Shown piece by piece: positions 2,296 through 24,077 of a stretch of 64,000 nucleotides of DNA. The DNA lies in contig OZ244999.1 in NCBI GenBank assembly GCA_965223265.1, positions 5,120,001 to 5,184,000 of the forward strand, read 5' to 3'. Under the pieces are notes generated by a model. It had not been told where the DNA came from and made no database searches. It saw nothing but the letters and a program-made list of their open reading frames with translations. Source of the DNA: Planctomycetota bacterium. Its GTDB lineage: Bacteria; Planctomycetota; UBA8108; SXIK01. Within the stretch, counting starts at the first letter, position 1. Every line of letters begins with the position of its first letter. The translations under genes were made by a program, and so were the position numbers.

Positions 2296-4084
<1,789 letters not shown>

Positions 4085-4175
4085 CGAGCAGACGGCGCAT
4101 CGCGATCAGCTGTGGAGGTGAACGATCCTCGCGGCAGCTCGCAATCGCGTCGGTCGGCGTAGGAAGTGGATCCAA

Positions 4176-5669
4176 GTGAAGAGAAGAAAGAAACGCGCGC
4201 GACAGGGGCGCCAGGCGCGCCGGGAATCGAAGCCAACGCCCTGCTCGTCCCCAGAGGAGAAGGTCGCCGATCGCGAAATCAGCCAAGCAACGGCCGCACC
4301 GCCCCGACTCGACGAGCAGACGAGCAGCGCGCCTGCCGCAGACGACTCGCGACCACGCGATGACACGCGTGAAGACTGTCGCGAAGCGAGGGGAGAGAAA
4401 GACACGGCGCGCACCGACGCAAACAGTACCGCGCCAACGCTCGACGCCCCGGCCCGCGCCCTCGCGGCCAAACTCTCGGCGCTCTCCAGTGATTCACACG
4501 ACCGCCGCAGTGTGCGGGGCCGACAAGAAACACCCCAGTCAAACGCAGCCGACTCGATCTCTACATCGCGCCAGCCGGGCGAATGCGACGTCGACCGAAT
4601 CGATCGAGATGCGATGGCGGCTTCGCGGCAGCGAACTCCCGACGTCGAGTCGTCGACTCTCGTTCCACGAGCTGGCTCAACGCGCCCTCCACGGCACAAA
4701 TTCACAGCGCAAAAGAACTTGACGCCCACGCAGCTGCGAGGTCTCGAGAATGCGCACAAGAATTTCGCACGCGCCGCACAAGCGAAGATGGCGGCAGTTA
4801 TCCGGCGCAAGGTCAACGTCGAGCTCACTGAAATCCATCAGACGACATACTTTGAATTCTTGCGCACCCTGCCTAACCCCACCTGTCTCTTCGTCGTCGA
4901 GGCCCTCCCTGAATCGCTCGAACTCGTCGTCGAGCTCGGCCAGTCGATTGCCGGCCCGCTGATTGACCAGCTGCTGGGAGGACGCGCAGAGGACGCAACG
5001 CATGCCTCCGCTCCGCTGACGATGATCGAACAGGAAATCATCGCAACAGCACTCGATGATCTTCTTGACTCACTTGCCGATAGCTGGGCGCCGTGGTCGA
5101 GAATCCAGTTTCAACGCGGACGATGTGAGCGCACGCCCCTCAACTTACAGATCTTCGACGCGGATCAACTCGTCGTCGTCGTCGCGATGCGCCTGCGCTG
5201 TGCTGGCCACAGCGGCACCTTTCATCTCTGTTTACCAGCGCGCCCCTTCGCTGCCATCCTGTCGAGTTTCAGCTCCTCGGGGAAAACACAGGCCCGCGGT
5301 AGCGACAAAGACGCGAGGCGGCAACGCCTCTTCGAACGACTGGCTGACACGTCCGTCGAACTGCAGGCCGATTTACCGTCGATCCCCGTACGGCTGCATG
5401 ACCTGCTCACTCTACGCTGTGGCGATGTTCTCGACACACAGCTGGCCCGCGCCACGGAGGTGTCCGTGAAGGTGCAAGATCGATTGCTGCACCGGGGCCC
5501 TTTGACGAACTCGCAAGGACGCCGCGCGGTGCGCGTGACCGAACGCCTCTCCGAGACGAGCAGCGTCCGACGGACGCCGCGGTCACAGGCGGCAAACGGG
5601 ACCTCTGAGTCGCTCAGCGACACGTCGGAATCAGCGGTTGACAGCGCGAAGAACGGCGAGGAGGCGTAG
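4176..5669 (+). CDS. fliM: Flagellar motor switch protein FliM-like (FliM middle domain + SpoA/FliMN_C); true start may be ATG 4614
   Basis: QLRGLENAHKNFAR...TYFEFLRTLPNPTCLF, IDQLLGG, PLTMIEQ, and C-terminal LHDLLTLRCGDVL...GRRAVRV. Confidence 0.8.
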   Translation: MKRRKKRARQGRQARRESKPTPCSSPEEKVADREISQATAAPPRLDEQTSSAPAADDSRPRDDTREDCREARGEKDTARTDANSTAPTLDAPARALAAKLSALSSDSHDRRSVRGRQETPQSNAADSISTSRQPGECDVDRIDRDAMAASRQRTPDVESSTLVPRAGSTRPPRHKFTAQKNLTPTQLRGLENAHKNFARAAQAKMAAVIRRKVNVELTEIHQTTYFEFLRTLPNPTCLFVVEALPESLELVVELGQSIAGPLIDQLLGGRAEDATHASAPLTMIEQEIIATALDDLLDSLADSWAPWSRIQFQRGRCERTPLNLQIFDADQLVVVVAMRLRCAGHSGTFHLCLPARPFAAILSSFSSSGKTQARGSDKDARRQRLFERLADTSVELQADLPSIPVRLHDLLTLRCGDVLDTQLARATEVSVKVQDRLLHRGPLTNSQGRRAVRVTERLSETSSVRRTPRSQAANGTSESLSDTSESAVDSAKNGEEA

Positions 5670-5845
5670 CCTGTTGAATACGTGCTTCGAGCCGAAAACT
5701 GGTCTCTTCGCGTCCAGATCGGCCGCCACCAACGCAGGCAATCTTCGGGTCCTCTTCTTTCGACTCTGATGGCGAGTATTGACGCGGCCCGTCTGGGCGT
5801 GAAGAGGCCAGTTTCTTCGGCCGAATGACTTTTTCAGGCGGGCTG
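5668..5845 (+). mobile_element. MITE-like repeat, copy 1 (~178 bp)
   Basis: AGCCTGTTGAATA...GACTTTTTCAGGCGGGCTG; body nearly identical to 41420-41597; starts at the fliM TAG. Confidence 0.8.
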
Positions 5846-5918
5846 GTAGGCAAAGACGCCGCAGTCTCGGTGGCACGTGAAATCTACGCCTCCCACAGCA
5901 GCCGGCTGCCGATTCCGG

Positions 5919-7151
5919 CTACCTCTGAGTCCGCCGCGGAATCCGGACGGTCTCTCCGGCGCGTAGATGCAGGTTACGACGCCGCTTGAGCGCCGGGTTG
6001 GCCTGAACGATCTCGTGCATGCGCCCTCCATCACCAAGGAAGCGCTGCGCTAGACCCCAGAGAGTCTCACCCTCACCCACCTTGTGGCTGAACGTGCCTT
6101 GGCGTTTCGGTGCTGACCGGTCGCGGGCAGTCTGCGCGTCAACGCCACGCCCGTTCGGCGTCGCCGGGTTGTTCGAAACCTGACGCGGTCTCTTCGCGGG
6201 GGGCGCCGGCACGGTCACCGTCTTCCCGGGATGCATCTTCACGCCGGAGTTTGCGGCTTGAATGAGCTCGTACTGGGGTGCGAATTCGGCTCCCCAGTAG
6301 CGTTCCGCAATCGCCCACCAGCTATCGTTCGGACGAATCACATGCCGCGTAGGAAAACGGCCGCTCTTCTCGGCGTTCGGCCGGGGCCCTGTGTTTCTCA
6401 CAACCGTTGGCGGCGCGGTGTTCTTCTCATTCTTTGACCGGTCGGGCGGAATGTCGACCGTGACAATTCCTCGGTCCACCGATCCTTCGTCGGGCGCAAC
6501 GCTGACGATCGGAACCGTGCTATCGCGGCGCTTAGGTGCCGCTGGTTGGCGTTTGTCGTCGGCGCCGAGGCTAACGGGCGGGATCGGCAGCCCGGACGGA
6601 TCCCGTGGGCCAACAATGCTCACATCCCCGAGGGGGCCGACATTCGCACTGCGGAGCCGCCCCTGACGGCCACCGCCGCCATGCTGCCCTGTGGGCGGCG
6701 AAGGAACCGGGGCCCTGGCCAAATCGCCTCTCTGTTGCGACTGGGTGTCACGGGACGGCGGCGTTCGCGGCGCTCCAGGGGACTGCGAACCCGTTGTTCG
6801 CGATGGCGCGGTCGAATCGCCGTTTTTCATGTCACGGTTCGACGCCGTGTTGTCCCGACCCGTGGGAGGCCTGGCGGGCCCCCGATTGCCGCTGACTGTC
6901 CGATTCCCCGACACGGGACGGCGGCCGGTATCGCGGGAGGTCGACTTGACCGCGGGCTTTTTCTCTCCTTGTCGCTGCACCGATCTCTTGTCGGCGGCGA
7001 TGTTCGCGGCCGTCGTCTTCGCCGTCTCTTCAGAGCTTCGAGCATCGACCGTGGAGTCCGACGGTTCAGAGCTATCCTTTACGGCCCGCGCAATCACCGC
7101 CACCAGAATCACGAGCAAAGCAACCAGGGCAACCTTCGTCCCGCTGCTCAT
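5919..7151 (-). CDS. Membrane-anchored LysM peptidoglycan-binding protein (two LysM domains)
   Basis: N-terminal TM, long disordered linker, HVIRPNDSWWAIAERYWG and HKVGEGETLWGLAQRFLGDG...LRAGETVRIP. Confidence 0.88.
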   Translation of the reverse strand: MSSGTKVALVALLVILVAVIARAVKDSSEPSDSTVDARSSEETAKTTAANIAADKRSVQRQGEKKPAVKSTSRDTGRRPVSGNRTVSGNRGPARPPTGRDNTASNRDMKNGDSTAPSRTTGSQSPGAPRTPPSRDTQSQQRGDLARAPVPSPPTGQHGGGGRQGRLRSANVGPLGDVSIVGPRDPSGLPIPPVSLGADDKRQPAAPKRRDSTVPIVSVAPDEGSVDRGIVTVDIPPDRSKNEKNTAPPTVVRNTGPRPNAEKSGRFPTRHVIRPNDSWWAIAERYWGAEFAPQYELIQAANSGVKMHPGKTVTVPAPPAKRPRQVSNNPATPNGRGVDAQTARDRSAPKRQGTFSHKVGEGETLWGLAQRFLGDGGRMHEIVQANPALKRRRNLHLRAGETVRIPRRTQR

Positions 7152-7762
7152 ACTTCACTTCCTTTCACCACACCGCCATTCACCATACCGCAGAATGCTA
7201 CTGAGCCGCGAACCGGCGAGGCGTGCACCGACAGACAGCGTCTTCCGAGCACACACAGTTTCGGCACGGCGCAGCCGCAAGGTCCTCTGACCGCAGCTCG
7301 ACCTCACCTGCAAGTAGCGCCAAAATGGAATCTGGCCCACTCGCGTCTCCACAGGCGAGCGTTGGTCCTCTTCACTCTCTTTTTCCCGCTCTCCCGCCTC
7401 GTCCTCTCGTCTCTCTTCTGGATTCTCTCTTCCGCTTCCCTTCTCTCGCCGCTCCATCATCGTTCGGAGCGCGTCCTCTCGTTCTTTCCATGCACGCGAC
7501 GCGTGCACGTCCGACACGAGATTCAGTCGAACCGGCCGTATCCGGCGGGACAAGATAGGCCGGTAAACTTTTGGGAATTTAAGCGGCGGCAGGGCCAGAC
7601 GTCAACAATGAATCTTGACGAACCGCGGGAAGGGCTCGTAGCGCGGAACGATCACGCCGCCGGCCGTGGTGAAGCAGCATCCCGCCTCGCCACGGCCGAC
7701 AGCTCGATCTGGCACCTTGAAGACCCTATTGTCGGCCCATTGTCGATGGGCTCCGAAGGTCT

Positions 7763-10700
7763 CTACACCTGCTCCATCGCGATGCGCTCGCGTCTCGCAA
7801 CCGAACGCGCATGCAGGATGATCAGCACGGGGCTGGCGACAAACACTGAGGAGTAGGTTCCTGCGAGGATGCCGATCAGGAAGATGAAAGCAAAGCCGCT
7901 GACCGCCTCGGTCGCAAAGAAGAGCAGGACGAAGGTCACACACAGCGTCGTCAAGGATGTCCAGAGTGTACGCGTCAAAGTCTGGTTGATGCTCAGATTA
8001 ACGATGTCTTTGAAATCCATCCGCTTCTTGGCAAACAACTGCATGTTTTCGCGGATGCGGTCAAAGATGACGATCGTGTCGTTGATCGAGTAACCAACAA
8101 TCGTAAGAATCGCCGCCAGCTCGGCGAGATTGATCTTCACAGAAAACGTGCCGCCGAAGAAGTAGTCGACCATGGCGACAAGTCCGATGCTGATGAGAAT
8201 ATCGTGAACGAGCGCCACAATGGCGGCGACACCGAAGATGAACTCAAAGCGCAGCGAAACGTAGAAGATGATCCCGAGCATCGAGATGAAAAGTGCGACA
8301 ATCGCATCCTGCTGAAGCGTCGAGGCGACCTTAGGCCCGACGGTCGCAACTTCGGAAAACGCCTCCGACAGTTCAAAAAGTCGATCGTTCCCGGCCGCTG
8401 TGGCGCCTGGTCCGTGACTATGAAAAAAATCTGTGAACGCCTCCTCGACGACGGTTTGCGGCGGTGATTCGTTCGACCGAAGGGCCTGGACCGGCGGCTG
8501 ATAGGCGTTGGTGACAAACTGATAGCGTTTGACACCGTCGGTGTCCGACACCAGAGACACTGACTCGACCGAAATCCCTGTGAAGCTTCCCACCGGCGTC
8601 CCTGACTCCGACAGGCGTGGCTGCAGATCCGGATTCGCAGCGAACGCGGCGTTGAGTCGATCCTTAAAGTCCTCTTCGGTGAGGTCCGCTTCGACTCGGA
8701 GAAAATTGACGTCCATCGTCAGATAGAAGTTGCCTTCGCTGCCAGCGTCGGTCGCCAACTTCCACTCCCGCAACGGAATGAGCGGCGGCAGGAGCAAGTT
8801 GTCCGCGCGCAGCATGTCTTCGAGTGCTGAACGGACGCGCTGGGCCGGTCCAATCTGCGACCCCGCGTCGATAGTGCCGTCTGCGACACTCGGCGCTGCG
8901 GAGATGCTGGTGCCCGCATCCGCAGGGGGCGTTGAGGCGCTCTGCGAGGTCGCCGCGTCTTCCGCCGGTGCTGATTCCGACTCTTGGGCATTCGCCGCCG
9001 GCAAACCGCCATGCCCCTCGCTGGCTCGCGTTCGCAGCGCGAACGCACTCGCCTCGTCGGACGATCCGGCCAAGGTCTGTAGAGTCCAGTCGCGGAAGAG
9101 CTCTGGCTGGGCGGTGGCAAGCGTGGCGATCTTGCTCTTCATGTCTGCGACTGAAATCGGGCGACTCAGCTGCATGTTAATGCGCGCGCCACCCGTGAAA
9201 TCGATGCCGTAGTTGTTGCTGCCGCGCGCGATCACGAGGACCCAAGTGGCGACGATCACAAACACCGAGCCCGTCAGAAAACGCCTCTGCACGCGCGGGA
9301 AGTTGATGTTGGGCGTCTCGAAGGCCTGAAGCATACGAAACGATTTGACGATCCCGACGTTGACGAGGAAGCTGACGATGAGTCGAGTGACAAAGATCGC
9401 TGTGATGAAGCTGATCACGATGCCGCTGATGAGCGTGACGGCGAATCCTTTGACGGGTCCGGTGCCGAACTGAAAGAGGACCATGCCAGTGATGAACGTC
9501 GTTAGGTTGGCATCAAAGATGACCCAAAAGGCGCGTCGATAGCCCGACGCGAGGGCCTGCAAGACCGGCTTCCCCTTCTTCAGCTCCTCGCGCACACGCT
9601 CGAAAATGAGAATGTTGGCATCCACGGCCATACCGACGGTGAGCAGAATGCCCGCCATGCCTGGGAGCGTGAGCGTCTGGCGAAAGCACGCGACGTAGGT
9701 GAGGATAAAGAAGATGTTCAGCACCAGCGCGAAATTCGCCACGAGGCCGCCGGCGAGGTAGTAGACCGCCATGATCAGCATGACGATCGCAAGGGCGCAC
9801 AAAACCGCCTGCAAGCTCGACTGAATTGAGTCTTGCCCCAAGACCGACCCGACGGTGCTCTCAGAGACAAGCGCCGGTTTGGCCGGCAAGCTGCCGCCGC
9901 GAAGGATCGTGACAATGCCGATGACATCGTCCTGTGTGAACTGCCCAGAGATCTCGCCGCTGGCGCCGATGCGCTCGCTGATGTTCGCGACCTGAATGAT
10001 GTCATTGTCGAGCGTGATCGCAAGGCCGCGGTCGACATTGCTGCCAGTCAAGTTGCCGAATTGAAAGGCGCCTTCACCGTCGAACTCGAAAAACACCGCC
10101 GGTCCGTATGTGCGCTGGCTACGAGTTGGGCTGACGCGCTTGAGGTGGCTACCGCTCACGATCTTGTCGGGCGAGTTCTCAAGCGTGCGCTTGATCGGGC
10201 GGCCGGCTTCGTTCCTCTGGGGCTGGAATCCGGCGGCTGGGTTGTCGGGATCCTTCTCGACGACGACGCGAACGACGTAGAGCGGGCGTTCCGGGCGCGG
10301 TCCCTGAAAGTTCGGGTCGGCGACTTTCTTCTCAACCCACTCGCGCTCAGCGTTGACGTAAGCCAGCTCTTCGCGCTCGATTTGAGCTTGCCGCTCGGGC
10401 GTCTGCTCGGACTCGATCGCCTCCAATCGAAACTCAAGCGTGCCGGCCGTTTCGATCTGCTGCTTGATGGCGCCGACCGACTGGGCGTCCTGGCCGGGGA
10501 GCTGAACGACCAGCTGATCCCGCCCCTGAACCGCGACGCTGATGTCTTTGAGTCCGTAGACGTTCAGGCGATTCGTGATGATGTCCTTCACTTCGCCGGC
10601 GACCTTGTCGCGCTCAGACTCAACGCGGCTGAGATCGATCGAGTAGGTCAGCTCGGAGCCGCCGACGAGGTCAATGCCGTACTGGAGTCGGGTTTCGGCG

Positions 10701-10768
10701 AGAATCCACACCCCGAGTCCGATCACGAGTGCGAGTAGGGCGAAGCCCCAGCGTGTTCTCTTGTACAT
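7763..10768 (-). CDS. secDF: Fused protein translocase subunit SecDF
   Basis: YGIDLVGG, TLTLPGMAGILLTVGMAVDANILIFERVREE (SecD); YGIDFTGG, GYSINDTIVIFDRIREN (SecF). Confidence 0.97.
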   Translation of the reverse strand: MYKRTRWGFALLALVIGLGVWILAETRLQYGIDLVGGSELTYSIDLSRVESERDKVAGEVKDIITNRLNVYGLKDISVAVQGRDQLVVQLPGQDAQSVGAIKQQIETAGTLEFRLEAIESEQTPERQAQIEREELAYVNAEREWVEKKVADPNFQGPRPERPLYVVRVVVEKDPDNPAAGFQPQRNEAGRPIKRTLENSPDKIVSGSHLKRVSPTRSQRTYGPAVFFEFDGEGAFQFGNLTGSNVDRGLAITLDNDIIQVANISERIGASGEISGQFTQDDVIGIVTILRGGSLPAKPALVSESTVGSVLGQDSIQSSLQAVLCALAIVMLIMAVYYLAGGLVANFALVLNIFFILTYVACFRQTLTLPGMAGILLTVGMAVDANILIFERVREELKKGKPVLQALASGYRRAFWVIFDANLTTFITGMVLFQFGTGPVKGFAVTLISGIVISFITAIFVTRLIVSFLVNVGIVKSFRMLQAFETPNINFPRVQRRFLTGSVFVIVATWVLVIARGSNNYGIDFTGGARINMQLSRPISVADMKSKIATLATAQPELFRDWTLQTLAGSSDEASAFALRTRASEGHGGLPAANAQESESAPAEDAATSQSASTPPADAGTSISAAPSVADGTIDAGSQIGPAQRVRSALEDMLRADNLLLPPLIPLREWKLATDAGSEGNFYLTMDVNFLRVEADLTEEDFKDRLNAAFAANPDLQPRLSESGTPVGSFTGISVESVSLVSDTDGVKRYQFVTNAYQPPVQALRSNESPPQTVVEEAFTDFFHSHGPGATAAGNDRLFELSEAFSEVATVGPKVASTLQQDAIVALFISMLGIIFYVSLRFEFIFGVAAIVALVHDILISIGLVAMVDYFFGGTFSVKINLAELAAILTIVGYSINDTIVIFDRIRENMQLFAKKRMDFKDIVNLSINQTLTRTLWTSLTTLCVTFVLLFFATEAVSGFAFIFLIGILAGTYSSVFVASPVLIILHARSVARRERIAMEQV

Positions 10769-10952
10769 ATCCTGGTCCTCTCTTGAAGTTCCGCGATGCC
10801 CCGAACGCGTGAATCGTCGCTTTTATCGGCGCTCACGCGCTCGCGCGTTGAAGAAAAATCTCACGCGCAGGCACTCTTCACCTGTGCGCGTTCTTCCGCC
10901 ACGACTCGATCGTTTTGGCGTCCGTTCGATGAGCAGTCCGTGCCGCGAACGG

Positions 10953-11402
10953 CTACATGGACGTCGCGTGCGGAGGAGCGCGCGGGGCGCGGAGGAGCGT
11001 CGCGGGGTCTTCGCCCGCGCTCCCAAGGGGCGGCAGAGTCCGACCGCGCCAAAGAGCCAGAGGCGGTCGCTGCTGGCCGGGCGTCGCGCGGTGCGCCGCG
11101 TGCACGAGACCGTCGCCCTCTCGGGTCGGACGGCGTTCGACCACATCGCGACTCGCCGCGTTGCAAGCGTCGGCCAGCGGCTGGCCGGGCGGGTTCTGGC
11201 TGCCGCCCCGCGGTGACGGCTCTTCCTCATGCGTTGCGTCGGGCGGCGCCGCGGCCGTCAGGCTCCCCCACCCACCGACAACACAGCTACCGAGGAAACC
11301 CAGCACCATCGGCAAGAGTGCCGCCACGCGACGACGTCGTCGCTCCGCGGCAGAGGTCGCGTCGAAATCAGCGCTGTGGTTTTTGGTGGTGGTGCAGCTC
11401 AT
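10953..11402 (-). CDS. Putative secDF leader / translation-arrest peptide, 149 aa, signal/TM segment plus C-terminal RAPP
   Basis: From ATG 11402: MSCTTTKNH...RRRRRVAALLPMVLGFLGSCVVGGWGSLTAAAPP...TLLRAPRAPPHATSM*; fills the yajC-secDF gap on the operon strand. Confidence 0.7.
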   Translation of the reverse strand: MSCTTTKNHSADFDATSAAERRRRRVAALLPMVLGFLGSCVVGGWGSLTAAAPPDATHEEEPSPRGGSQNPPGQPLADACNAASRDVVERRPTREGDGLVHAAHRATPGQQRPPLALWRGRTLPPLGSAGEDPATLLRAPRAPPHATSM

Positions 11403-11480
11403 ATCTACTCGGGGCGCGAGGCGCGGCACCCGGTCAAGGGCGCCCCCTGCCCGCTCGGCCCGTCGCCGGTGCTCGCTGAA

Positions 11481-11510
11481 TGAATTCGTCTGAATTCGTC
11501 TGAATTCGTC
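11481..11510. repeat. Perfect 10-bp tandem repeat (TGAATTCGTC)x3
   Basis: Read directly; between the yajC stop and the leader ORF start. Confidence 0.9.
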
Positions 11511-11532
11511 GCTTCGACAGCCGGTGGACTGG

Positions 11533-11955
11533 TCACTGCTGCGCTCGCTGCTCGATCTCACGCTGCGTGTGGTCGTCAGGAGCCTCGGCACCATCCGGCA
11601 TCACTTCGAGGATCGCAGCTTTGACGAAGCGGACCTTGACGTCCTTATCTTTGTCGATCTGCACGACAACGTCGTTGCCGTCGACGCGCTTGACCACGCC
11701 CCGCATGCCGCCCGTCGTGATGACTGAGTCACCCTTCTTGACCGCCGCGACCATCGCTTCGCGCGCCTTGCGTTTCTTTGATTCTGGTCGGAGGATCAGG
11801 AACCAAAAAACGACGCACATCAGTGCGATCGGAACGAACATGCCCCCCAGCGGTCCCACCGGCTGCTGCGCTCCGGTCTCCTCTGCGGCTTTGACGGCCG
11901 CTTCACCCGCGGCTCCTGTCTCCTGCGCCCAGAAAATCACCAACCGAGTCAACAT
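11533..11955 (-). CDS. yajC: Preprotein translocase subunit YajC
   Basis: FWFLILRPESKKRK...VKKGDSVITTGGMRGVV; tgt-yajC-secDF synteny. Confidence 0.95.
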   Translation of the reverse strand: MLTRLVIFWAQETGAAGEAAVKAAEETGAQQPVGPLGGMFVPIALMCVVFWFLILRPESKKRKAREAMVAAVKKGDSVITTGGMRGVVKRVDGNDVVVQIDKDKDVKVRFVKAAILEVMPDGAEAPDDHTQREIEQRAQQ

Positions 11956-12496: not shown

Positions 12497-13651
12497 TCAA
12501 CTCTCGCCGCGCGAGCGCTCCTGTCGCCACAGGCGGCAGAAGTCGCCGAAGGTTCCGCCGCGGATCGCCGCGCGCATACGCTCGATGAGATCGTGGTAGT
12601 AGGTCAGGTTGTGGAGCGTCCCGAGGATCGGCGCCAACATCTCGCCGCGACCGTAGAGGTGTCGTAAATAAGCCCGTGTCACATGCTTACAGGTATAGCA
12701 GCGGCATCCAGGGAGAACAGGTGAGAAGTCGTCGGCAAATCGTTGATTGCGCAGATTGAGACTGCCGGTCGCACCAAAGAGGCTGGCGTTGCGGGCGTGT
12801 CGGGTCGGCATCACACAGTCGAACAGGTCGACGCCAAGGGCCACCATGTCGACGAGGTCGTCCGGCGTGCCGACTCCCATGAGGTAACGCGGACGTTCTC
12901 GCGGCAGCTGTGGTGCAGTCACGGCGACCACGCGACGCATCGCTTCTGGCGTCTCCCCGACGGAGACCCCGCCGATCGCGTAGCCGGCGAAGTCGAGACT
13001 CTTGAGCTCAGCGCTGGACTGCAGCCTCAGATCGTCGAAGCGCCCCCCCTGGACGATCCCGAAAAGCGCTTGCTCGGCTGGCCGCCGGTGCGCCGCCAAG
13101 CTGCGCTGCGCCCAGCGGCTGGTGCGCTCGACGGCGCGCTCGACCTCCCGCCGCGGCGCGTCGTAGGGCGGGCATTCGTCGAACGCCATAATGATGTCCG
13201 CACCGAGATCATTCTGGATCTCCACCGAACGCTCAGGAGTCAACCGCAGCAGCTCACCGTCGACGTGGGACCGAAACGTGACGCCGTCATCGTCAATTCG
13301 GTTGAGCGTCGACAGGCTATAGACCTGATATCCACCGCTGTCGGTGAGGATGGGGCGGTCCCAGCCCATAAAAGCGTGGAGGCCACCGGCGCGCCGAACC
13401 AAGTCGCTGCCGGGACGAAGTGCGAGGTGGTAGGTGTTCGCCAGAAGGATTTCGGTGCCGCACTCGCGCAGGTCGCGCGGCGTCATCCCTTTGACGCTCG
13501 CCTGGGTGCCGACCGGCATGAAAACTGGCGTTTCGACAGGCCCATGCGGCAATTCCAACCTGCCGCAGCGCGCACCGCAGGTGGAATCTTCCGCCTCGAG
13601 GCGGAACTCAAACCCACTCACGACTCTGCCCGAATCGTACGCCGCAGCCAC
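12497..13651 (-). CDS. tgt: tRNA-guanine transglycosylase
   Basis: ETPVFMPVGT, ILTDSGGYQ, FGIVQGG, RYLMGVG, DLFDCVMPTR and the Zn site CxCxxC...H. Confidence 0.97.
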   Translation of the reverse strand: MAAAYDSGRVVSGFEFRLEAEDSTCGARCGRLELPHGPVETPVFMPVGTQASVKGMTPRDLRECGTEILLANTYHLALRPGSDLVRRAGGLHAFMGWDRPILTDSGGYQVYSLSTLNRIDDDGVTFRSHVDGELLRLTPERSVEIQNDLGADIIMAFDECPPYDAPRREVERAVERTSRWAQRSLAAHRRPAEQALFGIVQGGRFDDLRLQSSAELKSLDFAGYAIGGVSVGETPEAMRRVVAVTAPQLPRERPRYLMGVGTPDDLVDMVALGVDLFDCVMPTRHARNASLFGATGSLNLRNQRFADDFSPVLPGCRCYTCKHVTRAYLRHLYGRGEMLAPILGTLHNLTYYHDLIERMRAAIRGGTFGDFCRLWRQERSRGES

Positions 13652-13673: not shown

Positions 13674-14741
13674 TCAACCTAAGTGAAACTCCGCCTGGCG
13701 CATGCCGCCCCTCCGCGCGGCGACAAACTGCGGGTAGGACGCGACCCCCGCCTCACTGACGCGGCGACCACGAGGCGTGCGGACCAGCATGCCTTTTTGG
13801 ATGAGGTAGGGTTCGTAGACGTCCTCGATCGTCCGCTCCTCCTCACCGACCGAGACAGCGAGCGTCTTGAGTCCCACCGGCACGTCGTGGAGGCAAAGCA
13901 CTTCGAGGATGCGACGATCGATCCGGTCGAGCCCGTTGGCGTCAACGCCGAGTCGCTCGAGCCCGGCGGTGACGTCGTCGACGGTGATCTCCAGCGCCCC
14001 GTTACCGTCCCACTGCGAGCGGTGCTGCGCGACATCACGGATGCGACGCAAAAACCTGTTCGCGTAGCGTGGTGTGCCGCGACAGCGCTCCGACAACACC
14101 GCAGCGGCTTGGCGTTCGATCGTACAATTGAGTAGCCGTGCGGAGCGCAGAATGATTTCGACAAGCTCGGTCGGTGGGTAAAGCTCCAGCTTCTCACAAA
14201 TCCCGAAACGGCTACGAAACGGCTCGCTCAGCATTCCCTCGCGAGTCGTCGCTCCAATGAGCGTGAACGGCTCCACCGGAATGCGATACGACCGCGCATC
14301 GGGACCACGGTCAAGCACGATATCGACGCTGAAGTCCTCCATCGCCGAGTAGAGGTACTCTTCGGTCTCTCGAGACATTCGATGGATTTCATCGATGAAC
14401 AGAACGTCACCGCGGTGTAGACCTGTCAGCAACCCAAGAATGTCCTTCCCTTTCTCGAGCACCGGCCCCGAGGTTGAATGGAGCTCGGTGCCGACCGCCT
14501 CGCGAACGAGGCCGGCGAGTGTCGTTTTGCCGAGCCCCGGCATGCCGGAGAGCAGCACGTGGTCGAGCACTTCGCGGCGCGCCATGGAAGCGCTAATCGC
14601 GATTCCGAGATTCTCGACGACGCGACGCTGGCCGATGAACTCCTGGAATCGCTGAGGTCGCAGACTCTTCTCGGCGCGCACCTCCTCGTCCGTCGCGGGA
14701 GCGGGCTCGAAAGAATGCTCCCCGTCCGTTCTCTCTGTCAT
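13674..14741 (-). CDS. ruvB: Holliday junction branch migration helicase RuvB
   Basis: LRPQRFQEFIGQ, GMPGLGKTT, LFIDEIHR, IGATTR, RGTPR, EDVYEPYLIQ, RTPRGR. Confidence 0.97.
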   Translation of the reverse strand: MTERTDGEHSFEPAPATDEEVRAEKSLRPQRFQEFIGQRRVVENLGIAISASMARREVLDHVLLSGMPGLGKTTLAGLVREAVGTELHSTSGPVLEKGKDILGLLTGLHRGDVLFIDEIHRMSRETEEYLYSAMEDFSVDIVLDRGPDARSYRIPVEPFTLIGATTREGMLSEPFRSRFGICEKLELYPPTELVEIILRSARLLNCTIERQAAAVLSERCRGTPRYANRFLRRIRDVAQHRSQWDGNGALEITVDDVTAGLERLGVDANGLDRIDRRILEVLCLHDVPVGLKTLAVSVGEEERTIEDVYEPYLIQKGMLVRTPRGRRVSEAGVASYPQFVAARRGGMRQAEFHLG

Positions 14742-14894
14742 CCGCTCTCCTCCGTGCAGGCTTGGGACGGCGCAAACAGCGCGCACAGCCTGTCTCCTGG
14801 TTCTCTGACTTCTACTTCTTTTGTGTTGGGGCGAAGTCGAACCGACGGTCTCGACACGACCCGCTCTGATTCGAAAAGTTGCTGCTGCACGAAC

Positions 14895-21014: not shown

Positions 21015-21806
21015 TCAGGGCAGATGGAACTCGGGGGCGGTGTCGTTGACGAGCGCCTCGGAGATCTTCTGGACGTTCTTGCTCGCGGCCTGAATGAGGC
21101 AGGCGGTGGCGATGTTGTTGATGCGCCGCGGCACGCCGCTTGAGTAGTCGTGGATGAGCGACTTCGCTTCAGGCTCGAAGACTTTCTGCGAGGCGCCGGC
21201 TGCGCGCATCTGAAAGTCGATGTACTCGACCGTCTGCTCCTTGCTGAGCGGCGGCACGTGGTAGCGCACGCTGAGCCGATGCGTGAGATCGGCGTGGCGC
21301 GCTCGGGTAAGCTCCTTTCTCAGGGTCTCTTGTCCGCTGAGGAGGATCTTCAATGGCGGGCCGTCCTCGAGTCCGGAGCTGACCAGAAGTCTCAGATCGG
21401 TGAGCGACTCCGAAGGAAGCAGGTGCGCTTCATCGATGACGAGGATTGTCGTGTGCTCGTTCGCCCCGACGCGATCCAGGATCTGGAGGAAGAGCCGCTC
21501 CTTGCCACGGCGGGGCTGCTCGCCGAGGCTGGAAACCAGGAGCTTCAGAATGCCGTTTGCCCCGACGTAGGTCAGCGAGAGATAGATCGGGTCGTAGAGG
21601 TTGCGGCTCAGCGAGCGCACGAAGAGCTTCACCAGAGACGACTTCCCCACCCCGGTGAGTCCGGTCACCAGGCCGATCGAGCCCGACTTGGCGAGGTACT
21701 CCAGTCGAGCGAGTCCCTGGGTGATGCGCTCGTCGGAAAGAATCTGCTCGACGGGCGCGCGCTCGAGAAAGGGCTGCGTCGTCATCTTGAAATGGGTGGT
21801 GAACAT
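21015..21806 (-). CDS. ExeA/TnsC-like AAA+ ATPase
   Basis: MFTTHFKMTTQPF, Walker A GLTGVGKS, Walker B LVIDEAH, ILLSGQ, GVPRRINN; TGATG coupling to the transposase. Confidence 0.92.
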   Translation of the reverse strand: MFTTHFKMTTQPFLERAPVEQILSDERITQGLARLEYLAKSGSIGLVTGLTGVGKSSLVKLFVRSLSRNLYDPIYLSLTYVGANGILKLLVSSLGEQPRRGKERLFLQILDRVGANEHTTILVIDEAHLLPSESLTDLRLLVSSGLEDGPPLKILLSGQETLRKELTRARHADLTHRLSVRYHVPPLSKEQTVEYIDFQMRAAGASQKVFEPEAKSLIHDYSSGVPRRINNIATACLIQAASKNVQKISEALVNDTAPEFHLP

Positions 21807-23368
21807 CAGTCCTCCTTTCTGCCTGCGAGTCGTTGAAGCTCGTAGGCGATGTAGGGAATGGATTTCTCCGGAGCCTTCTCGAAGGCCCTCAGCAAGAGGA
21901 CTTCGGTGAGGCTGGGAGTACGGTTGTAGAACTTCTTGAGTTCCTCGAGCTCCTCGGCGGTGAAGCTCGAGAGGGCGCCCTTGCGCCCCATGAGCCGGCC
22001 GAGAAGGCATGCGAAGTCGGTGAAGGGCCACTGGCGAGAGGCGATGACACGACGGTAGTCGATCCCCTGGGCGCGCTTCTTGAGCTCCTCGTCGTGCTCA
22101 CGGCGAAGAAGCTCCAGATAGTTGTGCTTCGCTTTGGCGGGAGGGGCGGGAGCACCGGCGTCCTCGCCCTCTTCGCGCTCGTGAAGGACGCCCTTTCCGA
22201 GGTACTCTTCGTTGCTGGAGTAGATGAGAACCGTGTCGGGCGCGGAGAAGGGATCGTAGCGGACTTCGACCTTGTCACCGCGCAGACTCTTGTCGACGCG
22301 ATAGAAGCGGCGATCGAGCTGGACGTCGGAGAAGTCCGGGTGAACGCGCCGCGTCTCGCGGCACATGAAGAACTCGGTGACGCGCTGAATGTCGACGTGT
22401 CGGATAGGCCGTTTGAGGCCGGCCTCGGCTCGTGCCTCGGGTGTTTCGCCGGTCTCGGTGTTGACCTGGCGGTGGTAGGCCACGGTCTTCCAGGAATCGA
22501 AGCTTCCGTTGAGCGAGTCGAGAGTGAGGATCTCGCCGGCTCTGACCTCGGCCTCGAACTGGCCCTGTATCGTCTCGATGAGTCGTTCGACGAGACCACC
22601 CGGTGGCGGATCGCCCTTGCCGCGATGGATGAGCCGGGTGACAACGGCAAGGCATGCCGCCTTGAGCGCTTTGGAGATATAGACCTTCGCCTGATCGACA
22701 TAGAGCTCGTCCGAAGCACCGTGCTTGGCCCACGCCCGCAGCAAGCAGTCGATCAAGACCTCGAGATTTTGCCGAAGGTAGTAGCGCCCCTCGACGAGCG
22801 AGCGGCTGTAGCAGTCGATGAGAACACAGAGGAAGGTGGGGACGACTTCGCCGTCGTGCAGCACGTAGGGTCCATCGGCGAAGTCGCCGACCCAGAGGGC
22901 ATGGGTGGAGTCACGAGTCCAGCGTTTCCGGACTTTCCTCCTCTCGACACCGAGCTTCAGCCGCGTCGCGCCGGCGATCTTGAGGTAGCGGAAGAGGGTC
23001 GAACGCGGAATGGTCTTTCCGTGCTGAGCCTGGAGGAACTTGTTGATGGCGAAGTGGGAGCGCAGTGGCTGATCACGCTTCAGCTCGACGGCTTTCTCGA
23101 CGAGCTCTTTGCCGTGGGCACGCGGTTTCCCGCGATCGCTTCGCGGCCTGCGGGCAAGACCCTCGAAGCCCTCCTCGCGATAGATGCGAAGCTTCCGCCT
23201 CAGGGTCGAAAGAGCCGGCTTGCGTCGCGATCCGTCGGGAAAGATGCGCTCTTCTTTGGCGAGCTCGCGGAGAAATCGCGCGGCTTCCTCCTCCGGCACC
23301 TCGCCGATGACGACGGGCTGGAGAAGAGCCGCCCAGAAGATAGCCCAATCGAGATCTTTCGCTTTCAT
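21806..23368 (-). CDS. DDE (rve) transposase with Mu-like C-terminal domain, 520 aa
   Basis: HTH STLRRKLRIYREEGFEGLARRPRSDRG; LWVGD, LYVDQ, LVERL catalytic triad; VEVRYDP C-terminal barrel. Confidence 0.93.
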   Translation of the reverse strand: MKAKDLDWAIFWAALLQPVVIGEVPEEEAARFLRELAKEERIFPDGSRRKPALSTLRRKLRIYREEGFEGLARRPRSDRGKPRAHGKELVEKAVELKRDQPLRSHFAINKFLQAQHGKTIPRSTLFRYLKIAGATRLKLGVERRKVRKRWTRDSTHALWVGDFADGPYVLHDGEVVPTFLCVLIDCYSRSLVEGRYYLRQNLEVLIDCLLRAWAKHGASDELYVDQAKVYISKALKAACLAVVTRLIHRGKGDPPPGGLVERLIETIQGQFEAEVRAGEILTLDSLNGSFDSWKTVAYHRQVNTETGETPEARAEAGLKRPIRHVDIQRVTEFFMCRETRRVHPDFSDVQLDRRFYRVDKSLRGDKVEVRYDPFSAPDTVLIYSSNEEYLGKGVLHEREEGEDAGAPAPPAKAKHNYLELLRREHDEELKKRAQGIDYRRVIASRQWPFTDFACLLGRLMGRKGALSSFTAEELEELKKFYNRTPSLTEVLLLRAFEKAPEKSIPYIAYELQRLAGRKED

Positions 23369-23408
23369 GATCACACCTCGCATGGGGCGAGCGAGGCGTG
23401 ATTCTCGC

Positions 23409-24077
23409 TCACGCCCAGGCTGCGGAGGTTGCCAAGTCGGGGAAGATCGATCGGCCGAAGAGGGAACGGAACACCTGGTCGATCGAGAGAGCTCGAAGTG
23501 CCGCGACGAGAGTGTCCCGCCGTGATTCGCTTCGGTACTTGGCTGGACGGACGGCGAAGACCTTGCGGAAGATGTCGGACCTCGCCGAGCGCTCTCGGAT
23601 GAGGCGGAGAGCCTCCAGGAGCGTGGCGTTGAGAGAGCGAAAGAACGAAAGCCAACGATGAAGTGTTGAGTGCGCGAGGCTGCGCTCGTCGATCGCTCCC
23701 CTGTCGTCACCCTCGTGGAAGACGGGCATGTGTTCGACCTTGACGGCTTCGCGATACGAAAGCTCGTCGATCTGGAGGTAGCGCCGAGCGTGATCGAAAA
23801 CGCAGTCGCGAACGTAGCGTTTCCCCGGCAGCGCGAAGGGCGGGTAGAGCGTGAAGGAGCGCTTACACAGAGGACACTTCCAGCGACTCAGAAGCGACAG
23901 GACAGGTTCGACCAGACGCCTGACGATAACGAGGAACACGCGCTCTCGGTGACCGCGGTAGCGGAACCGATCTGGCTCCCCGCTGCAATTCGGGCAGCGG
24001 TTACAGGTCGGCTGGATCTCACGGCGGCGAACAGCTTCGCCATAGCTCTGTATCGCGTTGACCAAATGGGGTAGCAT
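23409..24077 (-). CDS. DUF6431-like Zn-ribbon + HTH protein
   Basis: CPNC...RWKCPLCKRSFTLYPPFALPGKRY...LSYREA...HSTLHRWL; first gene of the element. Confidence 0.78.
   Translation of the reverse strand: MLPHLVNAIQSYGEAVRRREIQPTCNRCPNCSGEPDRFRYRGHRERVFLVIVRRLVEPVLSLLSRWKCPLCKRSFTLYPPFALPGKRYVRDCVFDHARRYLQIDELSYREAVKVEHMPVFHEGDDRGAIDERSLAHSTLHRWLSFFRSLNATLLEALRLIRERSARSDIFRKVFAVRPAKYRSESRRDTLVAALRALSIDQVFRSLFGRSIFPDLATSAAWA

Follow-up and report, generated by a model that had tools for sequence, protein, structure and literature searches.

The question raised by the locus described here is whether a small open reading frame (ORF) lying between yajC and secDF in a planctomycete genome encodes a leader peptide that reports on protein export, or whether it is an accident of a G+C-rich spacer. 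The DNA analysed, hereafter the window, is a stretch of 64,000 nucleotides from a Planctomycetota bacterium (GenBank assembly GCA_965223265.1, contig OZ244999.1, positions 5,120,001–5,184,000), with coordinates counted from its first nucleotide. On its minus strand, the genes ruvB, tgt, yajC and a fused secDF (Pfam assignments) follow one another, with a gap of 764 nt between the stop codon of yajC and the ATG of secDF. An initial reading based on the nucleotide sequence alone (hereafter, the sequence-only reading) had put this gap at 765 bp and had described within it a same-strand ORF of 149 aa with an RRRRR stretch, a hydrophobic segment, a spacer and an ending carrying the arrest motif RAPP. 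The gap is one nucleotide shorter than stated, the description of the ORF agrees with the sequence, and the coordinates given for the gap, the ORF, the motif and the stop codon were all correct to within one base.

By analogy with characterised leaders, we consider it fairly probable that this ORF (10953–11402, minus strand) is a translated leader of the RAPP class, reporting on export and tuning secDF. It would then probably be an orphan addition to a known class and not a new type of system. The anatomy of the ORF, the improbability of this anatomy by chance and a codon usage compatible with translation are the observations that speak for this reading.

Anatomy of the candidate and its likeness to known arrest peptides

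The candidate leader ORF (P0001) consists of 149 codons and a TAG stop codon (10953–10955), the latter located 184 nt before the ATG of secDF (about 185 nt in the sequence-only reading), and its product matches no Pfam or NCBIfam family. Residues 1–20 are followed by five arginine codons (R21–R25, 11328–11342), which form a positive n-region, and by a 21-residue hydrophobic segment (V26–G46, VAALLPMVLGFLGSCVVGGWG, 11265–11327) predicted to be a signal peptide or a signal anchor. The assignment of this signal was made by the Kyte-Doolittle hydropathy rule only, with a 19-residue maximum of 2.04 starting from residue 26, inside an uncharged run of 29 residues. Counted from the translation, the net charge changes from about +3 ahead of the hydrophobic segment to about −3 behind it, and this bias implies an N-in/C-out orientation. 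The spacer (residues 47–137, 10992–11264) is of low complexity and rich in Pro, Ala, Gly and Arg, and leads to a RAP-RAPP sequence (residues 138–144, 10971–10991). The RAPP motif itself corresponds to residues 141–144 of 149 and was located at 10971–10982, as previously indicated; five residues separate it from the stop codon. The ORF thus ends in LLRAPRAPPHATSM, its last residues being L-L-R-A-P-R-A-P-P-H-A-T-S-M.

An in-frame ATG at 11594 would yield a 213-aa form overlapping yajC. The ATG at 11402 seems to us the more probable start, since it leaves the arginines and the hydrophobic segment close to the N-terminus. A possible identity of the 213-aa form with SepX/GlpR was rejected, the score being 18 bits against an NCBIfam cut-off of 150. 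In the protein collection, an identical 149-aa sequence forms a cluster of one member, which means that it had already been predicted by some gene caller.

Leaders of this class have been described as proteins of 80–200 aa with an N-terminal topogenic signal, a hydrophilic spacer of at least 30–40 aa (more than 30 in PMC10987492) and, among the last 15 residues, a RAPP-like motif (PMC7897499, PMC10987492), the set of RAPP-like motifs including RAPP, RGPP, RAGP, RAPG, QAPP, HAPP and others (PMC10987492). The candidate falls within this description in length (149 aa), in its signal as judged by hydropathy, in its spacer (about 97 residues between G46 and the predicted P-site residue P143) and in the placement of its motif, and it is a small ORF of unknown function on the same strand as secDF and upstream of it. 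The interpretation proposed in the sequence-only reading is partly supported, namely in those features that can be read from a single sequence, whereas conservation in relatives, on which it also depended, was not found in the protein collections and loci searched. A named RQH group contains more than two upstream ORFs (uORFs) per bacterial order, and no second example of the candidate was found in these collections and loci. Its lineage is Planctomycetota, and nothing was similar to it at E ≤ 0.001 besides itself and one match to the hydrophobic segment, so that homology to ApdA or ApdP was not detected either.

The closest likeness is nevertheless with ApdA (Actinomycetota) and ApdP (Alphaproteobacteria), which are also encoded by small ORFs directly upstream of secDF and possess a signal or transmembrane segment followed by a long hydrophilic spacer. 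The RAPP motif occupies residues 120–123 of ApdA, with the construct ending at residue 128, and residues 131–134 of ApdP, with the end at residue 140 (PMC10951233, PMC7897499); five residues follow the motif in the candidate, five in ApdA and six in ApdP. As in the candidate, no hairpin masking the downstream ribosome-binding site is predicted for either of them. The candidate differs from both in its lack of sequence similarity to database proteins, in its phylum, in the 184-nt spacer that separates it from secDF and in the position of its RAPP motif within a frame-shifted duplication, and its stalling is a prediction.

The candidate fits the definition of an orphan RAPP uORF, that is, one of only one or two cases per bacterial order (PMC10987492). 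Like it, the RQH and orphan RAPP/RGPP uORFs found upstream of secA or secDF by Fujiwara et al. (2024, PMC10987492) were recognised by their position, signal, spacer and RAPP-like C-terminal motif and are not similar overall; they comprise 19 order-level RQH groups in nine phyla and orphans in nine phyla. Upstream of secD, 1,074 small RAPP ORFs have been counted, against 114 AAPP controls (36.9-fold enrichment; source data of Fig. 4B, PMC12992588), and where RAPP is present in small proteins, its occurrences concentrate close to the C-terminus of uORF products that bear a signal (same source). In the same phylum, the putative arrest peptides uA_LPPP and uA_RQH_UBA2386 correspond to signal-bearing uORFs that precede a Sec gene and have a C-terminal motif rich in proline, but this gene is secA rather than secDF, the motifs are LPPP, RAPA and RAPG, and the orders are Phycisphaerales, UBA1161, WQYP01 and UBA2386. 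The novelty claimed in the sequence-only reading was therefore overstated, given the number of RAPP ORFs upstream of secD and the existence of secA-linked candidates in Planctomycetota. A full-text literature search, in which the large survey tables were covered in part, found no paper on a planctomycete secDF leader, and the C-terminal string of the candidate was absent from the searchable parts of the supplements to PMC10987492 and PMC12992588.

SecM, VemP and MifM are more distant parallels: they too are export-targeted leaders, and it is believed that translocation relieves their stall and that the stall increases the expression of a downstream translocation gene (PMC10987492). These leaders disrupt a stem-loop that hides a Shine-Dalgarno sequence, and none is predicted at the candidate; the arrest sequences of VemP and MifM are also unrelated to that of the candidate.

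The geometry of a stall at the candidate can be drawn from ApdA and ApdP (PMC10951233), in which the block to peptide-bond formation depends on each of four residues, Arg, Ala and the two prolines of the P site and the A site (PMC10951233, PMC7897499). From this analogy, we infer that the ORF is translated, that ribosomes stall at RAPP, that export releases them and that secDF responds. The leader would be transcribed together with yajC and secDF, and its five arginines and hydrophobic segment, in the N-in/C-out orientation, would direct the nascent chain to the Sec translocon. On reaching R141-A142-P143, the ribosome would have P143 (codon 10974–10976) in its P site, with the Pro144 codon in the A site, and the RAP-tRNA/Pro-tRNA pair would block peptide-bond formation, as in ApdA and ApdP. 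The signal would at that point be about 97 residues from the peptidyl-transferase centre, well outside the exit tunnel; the spacer length of Sec-monitoring substrates in the N-in/C-out arrangement can vary (PMC10987492). Active translocation would pull on the chain and release the stall, whereas under poor export the stall would last and expression of secDF would rise.

Chance, the tandem duplication and the relatives of the locus

According to the first alternative, which we consider unlikely, the gap is a non-coding leader or spacer of secDF with a high G+C content; the ORF, its hydrophobic stretch and its RAPP tail would then be accidental products of that composition, the tail having arisen by a 19-nt slippage duplication. 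The length of the ORF is uninformative in this respect, as 1111 of 5000 random sequences with the composition of the gap had an ORF this long or longer (149 aa) on the same strand. The layout was much rarer. Among 20,000 copies of the gap generated with a second-order Markov model, 182 had a RAPP/RGPP tail and 113 a signal-like segment, but none had both, and a single copy combined signal and tail when the wider motif set was used. Of the window's non-gene ORFs with 100 aa or more (161 in all), 8 had a signal-like start and only two, one being the candidate, had RAPP or RGPP within the last 15 residues. Over all six frames (128,000 codon positions), the window has 17 occurrences of these two motifs, whereas its 21 real genes (10,762 residues) have none; in Planctomycetota proteomes, the frequency of RAPP is about 0.19 times that expected (PMC12992588, supplement file 1). 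The location is also exactly that of the known secD-upstream RAPP peptides (PMC12992588). The combination of a signal and a RAPP tail before secDF is very unlikely to be attributable to chance.

Codon usage modestly favours translation of the candidate frame. A synonymous-codon score trained on 21 long ORFs of the window (17 with Pfam matches) gave 0.091 for this frame over positions 10956–11402, the highest value of the six frames, the runner-up scoring 0.041. Real chunks of 149 codons had a mean score of 0.116 (SD 0.075), with 15 of 58 below the candidate, whereas wrong-frame chunks had a mean of −0.059 (SD 0.104), with 16 of 290 as high as the candidate. The body of the ORF 5' of the tandem repeat described below scored 0.082; the two other frames of this strand scored 0.026 and 0.000.

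The points that weigh against an export-reporting leader concern the composition of the ORF, the duplication beneath its motif, its relatives and the RNA that precedes secDF, and are given in that order. The G+C content of the gap region is 72%, as against 62% for the window, and six overlapping ORFs of more than 100 aa are found there in several frames (the five others match no Pfam family). Over one third of its length, the candidate frame comes only third among the six. The G+C content at second codon positions is 0.65, versus 0.40–0.50 in real genes, and the ESM Atlas recognition value, 2241, lies below the value of 2300 reached by 91 of 100 proteins from known families. The absence of a Shine-Dalgarno-like sequence before the ATG at 11402 is weak evidence, such a sequence being found in just 6 of the 21 window genes, the starts of which are unverified. 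The multiple open frames, the second-position composition, the low recognition value, the lack of homologues and the position of RAPP inside a repeat also speak for the chance explanation.

This repeat is an imperfect tandem duplication (10970–11007; period 19, 2.0 copies, 94% matches and one indel; Tandem Repeats Finder score 69), with a first copy of 20 nt and a second of 19 nt on the coding strand. As 19 is not a multiple of three, the copies are translated differently: CGCTCCTCCGC is read as T-L-L-R in the first copy and as R-A-P-P in the second, with the stop codon five codons later. The 'unusual tandem RAP-RAPP' of the sequence-only reading is therefore present, but it is the protein shadow of a DNA duplication. 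The RAPP within the repeat could be a plain product of slippage, and its position in the frame-shifted copy suggests that the motif may be evolutionarily young. The published survey indicates that RAPP-like peptides have arisen repeatedly (PMC10987492). One could go further and propose a recent de novo birth, in which a 19/20-nt duplication at the 3' end of a Sec-targeted leader shifted the frame, converted T-L-L-R to R-A-P-P and brought in a new stop codon five codons on, with secDF controlled otherwise than by unmasking of its ribosome-binding site; this scenario is, in our opinion, rather doubtful. If true, it would provide a case, in an isolated planctomycete lineage, of how the patchy, repeated RAPP 'seeds' arise.

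Homology searches identified no relatives of the candidate. A word-sharing search of 5.8 billion proteins recovered only P0001 itself among 209 candidates, and phmmer, with 1.84 billion representatives, recovered only P0001 and one match to the hydrophobic segment. The latter, a protein of 452 aa (P0110, E 4.2e-4), was set aside as a homologue, the match being limited to residues 27–55. With the C-terminal 45 residues as the query, again only P0001 was found, among six candidates; the C-terminal conservation expected of a leader class thus did not show up in these collections. The survey of this class stresses the absence of overall similarity among its members and relied on motif searches (PMC10987492), and a lack of homologues is to be expected for it.

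The nearest clusters in the ESM Atlas were unnamed small hypothetical proteins from Myxococcota and Actinomycetota (0.95–0.96). A cluster in which 24% of the members have DUF6153 scored 0.89, and DUF6153 proteins occur among RAPP uORF products (PMC12992588); we take the connection of this domain with the leader ORF as a lead only.

The source organism belongs to an isolated planctomycete lineage. The nearest relatives of its SecDF are named Planctomycetota bacterium, the best sharing 60% identity with it across the N-terminal 340 residues; some 23 proteins (P0002–P0024) have identities of 41–60%, and beyond this group full-length matches fall to about 31%. Related loci were sought with two SecDF patterns conserved across bacteria, derived from an alignment of 21 SecDF sequences. 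Most of the 80 loci retained belong to other phyla, and neither the window's genome nor the SecDF relatives with 41–60% identity are among them; the results from these loci hold among the matches listed. None of the five planctomycete loci has a RAPP-type ORF before secDF. In the closest of them (L001; SecDF best-segment identity 41%), yajC lies about 100–150 nt from secDF with no ORF in between, and in three others (L005, L006 and L018) yajC is within about 170 nt of secDF, also without an intervening ORF. No ORF with a RAPP-like tail was found in the 71 loci with a defined secDF 5' end, but the same scan missed the published Bacteroidota ORFs ending in NAP-stop and thus lacked a positive control. 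A YajC-like ORF was present upstream of secDF in 37 of these 71 loci from other bacteria, with a median gap of 48 nt and a gap of at most 168 nt in 35 of the 37; this bears out the description of the yajC-secD junction as usually tight, and contrasts with the 764 nt found in the window.

Two planctomycete loci had other ORFs upstream of secDF or yajC. In an uncultured Planctomycetales (L015), there is no yajC before secDF (3974–8119, 1381 aa); instead, prfA is followed by an ORF (3228–3764) encoding 154–178 aa, with a likely start at 3300 or 3312, that has a signal-like start, ends in R-A-L-A-P-P-C-A and stops 210 nt before secDF. Its G+C content by codon position is 0.69/0.61/0.79, and it has no similarity to P0001. 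This ORF could represent another planctomycete secDF leader, one whose tail is of the xAPP form but not RAPP. In L001, a stop-to-stop frame upstream of yajC (1610–2740) has an end resembling, by eye, the SecD P1-head, and may correspond to a second SecD-like gene or fragment.

The RNA before secDF and other possible roles for the ORF

The untranslated spacer between the candidate and secDF (10769–10952, minus strand, 184 nt) contains a stable local hairpin. None of its frames is coding-like (−0.161, 0.011 and 0.058), it matches no Rfam family, and the predicted fold of 10750–11010 has a z score of −2.17. The Shine-Dalgarno-like GAGAGGA of secDF (10776–10782) is touched in the predicted folds by a local hairpin of 4 bp only. 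In the fold model, the secDF ribosome-binding site had an unpaired probability of 0.59 when free and of 0.38 with a stalled ribosome imposed as a constraint, and 124 of 300 shuffled sequences did as well as the best pairing that the arrest region formed with the secDF start (−43.1 kcal/mol). No structure masking the ribosome-binding site was thus predicted in the three fold tests, and control of the SecM type, in which the stall exposes a sequestered site, does not appear to operate according to these models. Such a hairpin was not found for ApcA, ApdA or ApdP either, and the authors proposed a different mechanism (PMC7897499).

A second alternative, and a quite improbable one, is that the ORF encodes a real small exported protein or lipoprotein with a function of its own, in which RAPP is incidental or causes a brief pause, secDF being expressed independently. 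The N-terminal signal and the codon usage would suit such a protein, as would the FLGSC sequence around C40, which we take to be lipobox-like. The same is true of the 184-nt spacer, with its lack of predicted coupling to the secDF ribosome-binding site, and of the Atlas neighbours, which are unnamed small hypothetical proteins, with the lipoprotein family LpqS at 0.91. However, a functional exported protein might have homologues, and the candidate has none in the collections searched; its low-complexity spacer contains no domain in Pfam or NCBIfam, and an incidental RAPP is difficult to reconcile with the avoidance of this motif in the proteins of the phylum and the genes of the window, and with its clustering at the C-terminus of signal-bearing uORF products (PMC12992588).

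The export-reporting leader remains the reading we prefer, and one variant of it concerns transcription. In the tnaC system, a ribosome stalled on TnaC keeps Rho from loading and terminating. By this comparison, a ribosome stalled at RAPP would cover the C-rich end of the leader and so prevent the loading of a presumed host Rho, and termination, in the 184-nt spacer. The highest C/G ratio of the leader mRNA (1.68; C 47%, G 28%, over 78 nt) is that of positions 11010–10933 on the minus strand, which span the RAPP codons and the stop codon, and it is a matter of speculation that this region (10933–11010) is a Rho entry site hidden by the stalled ribosome. Although the lack of predicted structure over the secDF ribosome-binding site and the different mechanism suggested for ApcA, ApdA and ApdP, which are also without a hairpin (PMC7897499), would leave room for it, we consider this variant very improbable: the C/G ratio has a moderate value, and the G-rich spacer contains 61 G versus 49 C.

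Gene neighbourhood and biological meaning

The genes flanking the candidate are all on the minus strand. The fused secDF (7763–10768, 1001 aa), the presumed regulated gene, has the Pfam domains SecD_SecF_C (3e-74), SecDF_P1_head (8e-23), Sec_GG and SecD_1st. The 5' neighbour in the tgt-yajC-(leader)-secDF string is yajC (11533–11955, 140 aa; Pfam YajC, E 9.2e-25; NCBIfam TIGR00739, E 1.5e-22), preceded by tgt (12497–13651) and ruvB (13674–14786), both assigned by Pfam. Promoter and terminator scans gave no convincing candidates, with no convincing terminator between yajC and secDF, and there was no Rfam match at E ≤ 1 in 10600–11700. The 130 nt between the yajC stop codon and the leader ATG contain a perfect tandem repeat with three copies of a 10-nt unit (TGAATTCGTC on the plus strand, 11481–11510). 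Directly 3' of secDF, positions 5919–7151 (minus strand) encode a 410-aa protein with a long low-complexity region rich in Pro, Arg and Ser and a C-terminal LysM domain (Pfam, E 1.4e-10). Further away, an ORF at 21806–23710 (minus strand) matches the Mu-transposase C-terminal, integrase-core (rve) and HTH_32 families, suggesting a mobile element in the window, which also encodes the planctomycete families PSCyt1, PSCyt2, PSD1 and DUF1501.

If the ORF were a product of chance, it would follow that motif-only 'orphan' calls in G+C-rich genomes need conservation or profiling data. If the leader is real, it would be another case, like ApdA and ApdP, of a link between stall and gene other than the classical stem-loop, and the frame-shifted short tandem duplication would offer a concrete mutational route to the patchy emergence of RAPP described in the 2024 and 2025 surveys. 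Planctomycetota have unusual cell envelopes and very large secretomes. The published Sec-related arrest peptides of this phylum lie upstream of secA, as far as the accessible parts of the sources indicate, and a real leader at this locus would mean that control of secDF of the RAPP type also exists in a planctomycete lineage that is deep and has been little sampled.

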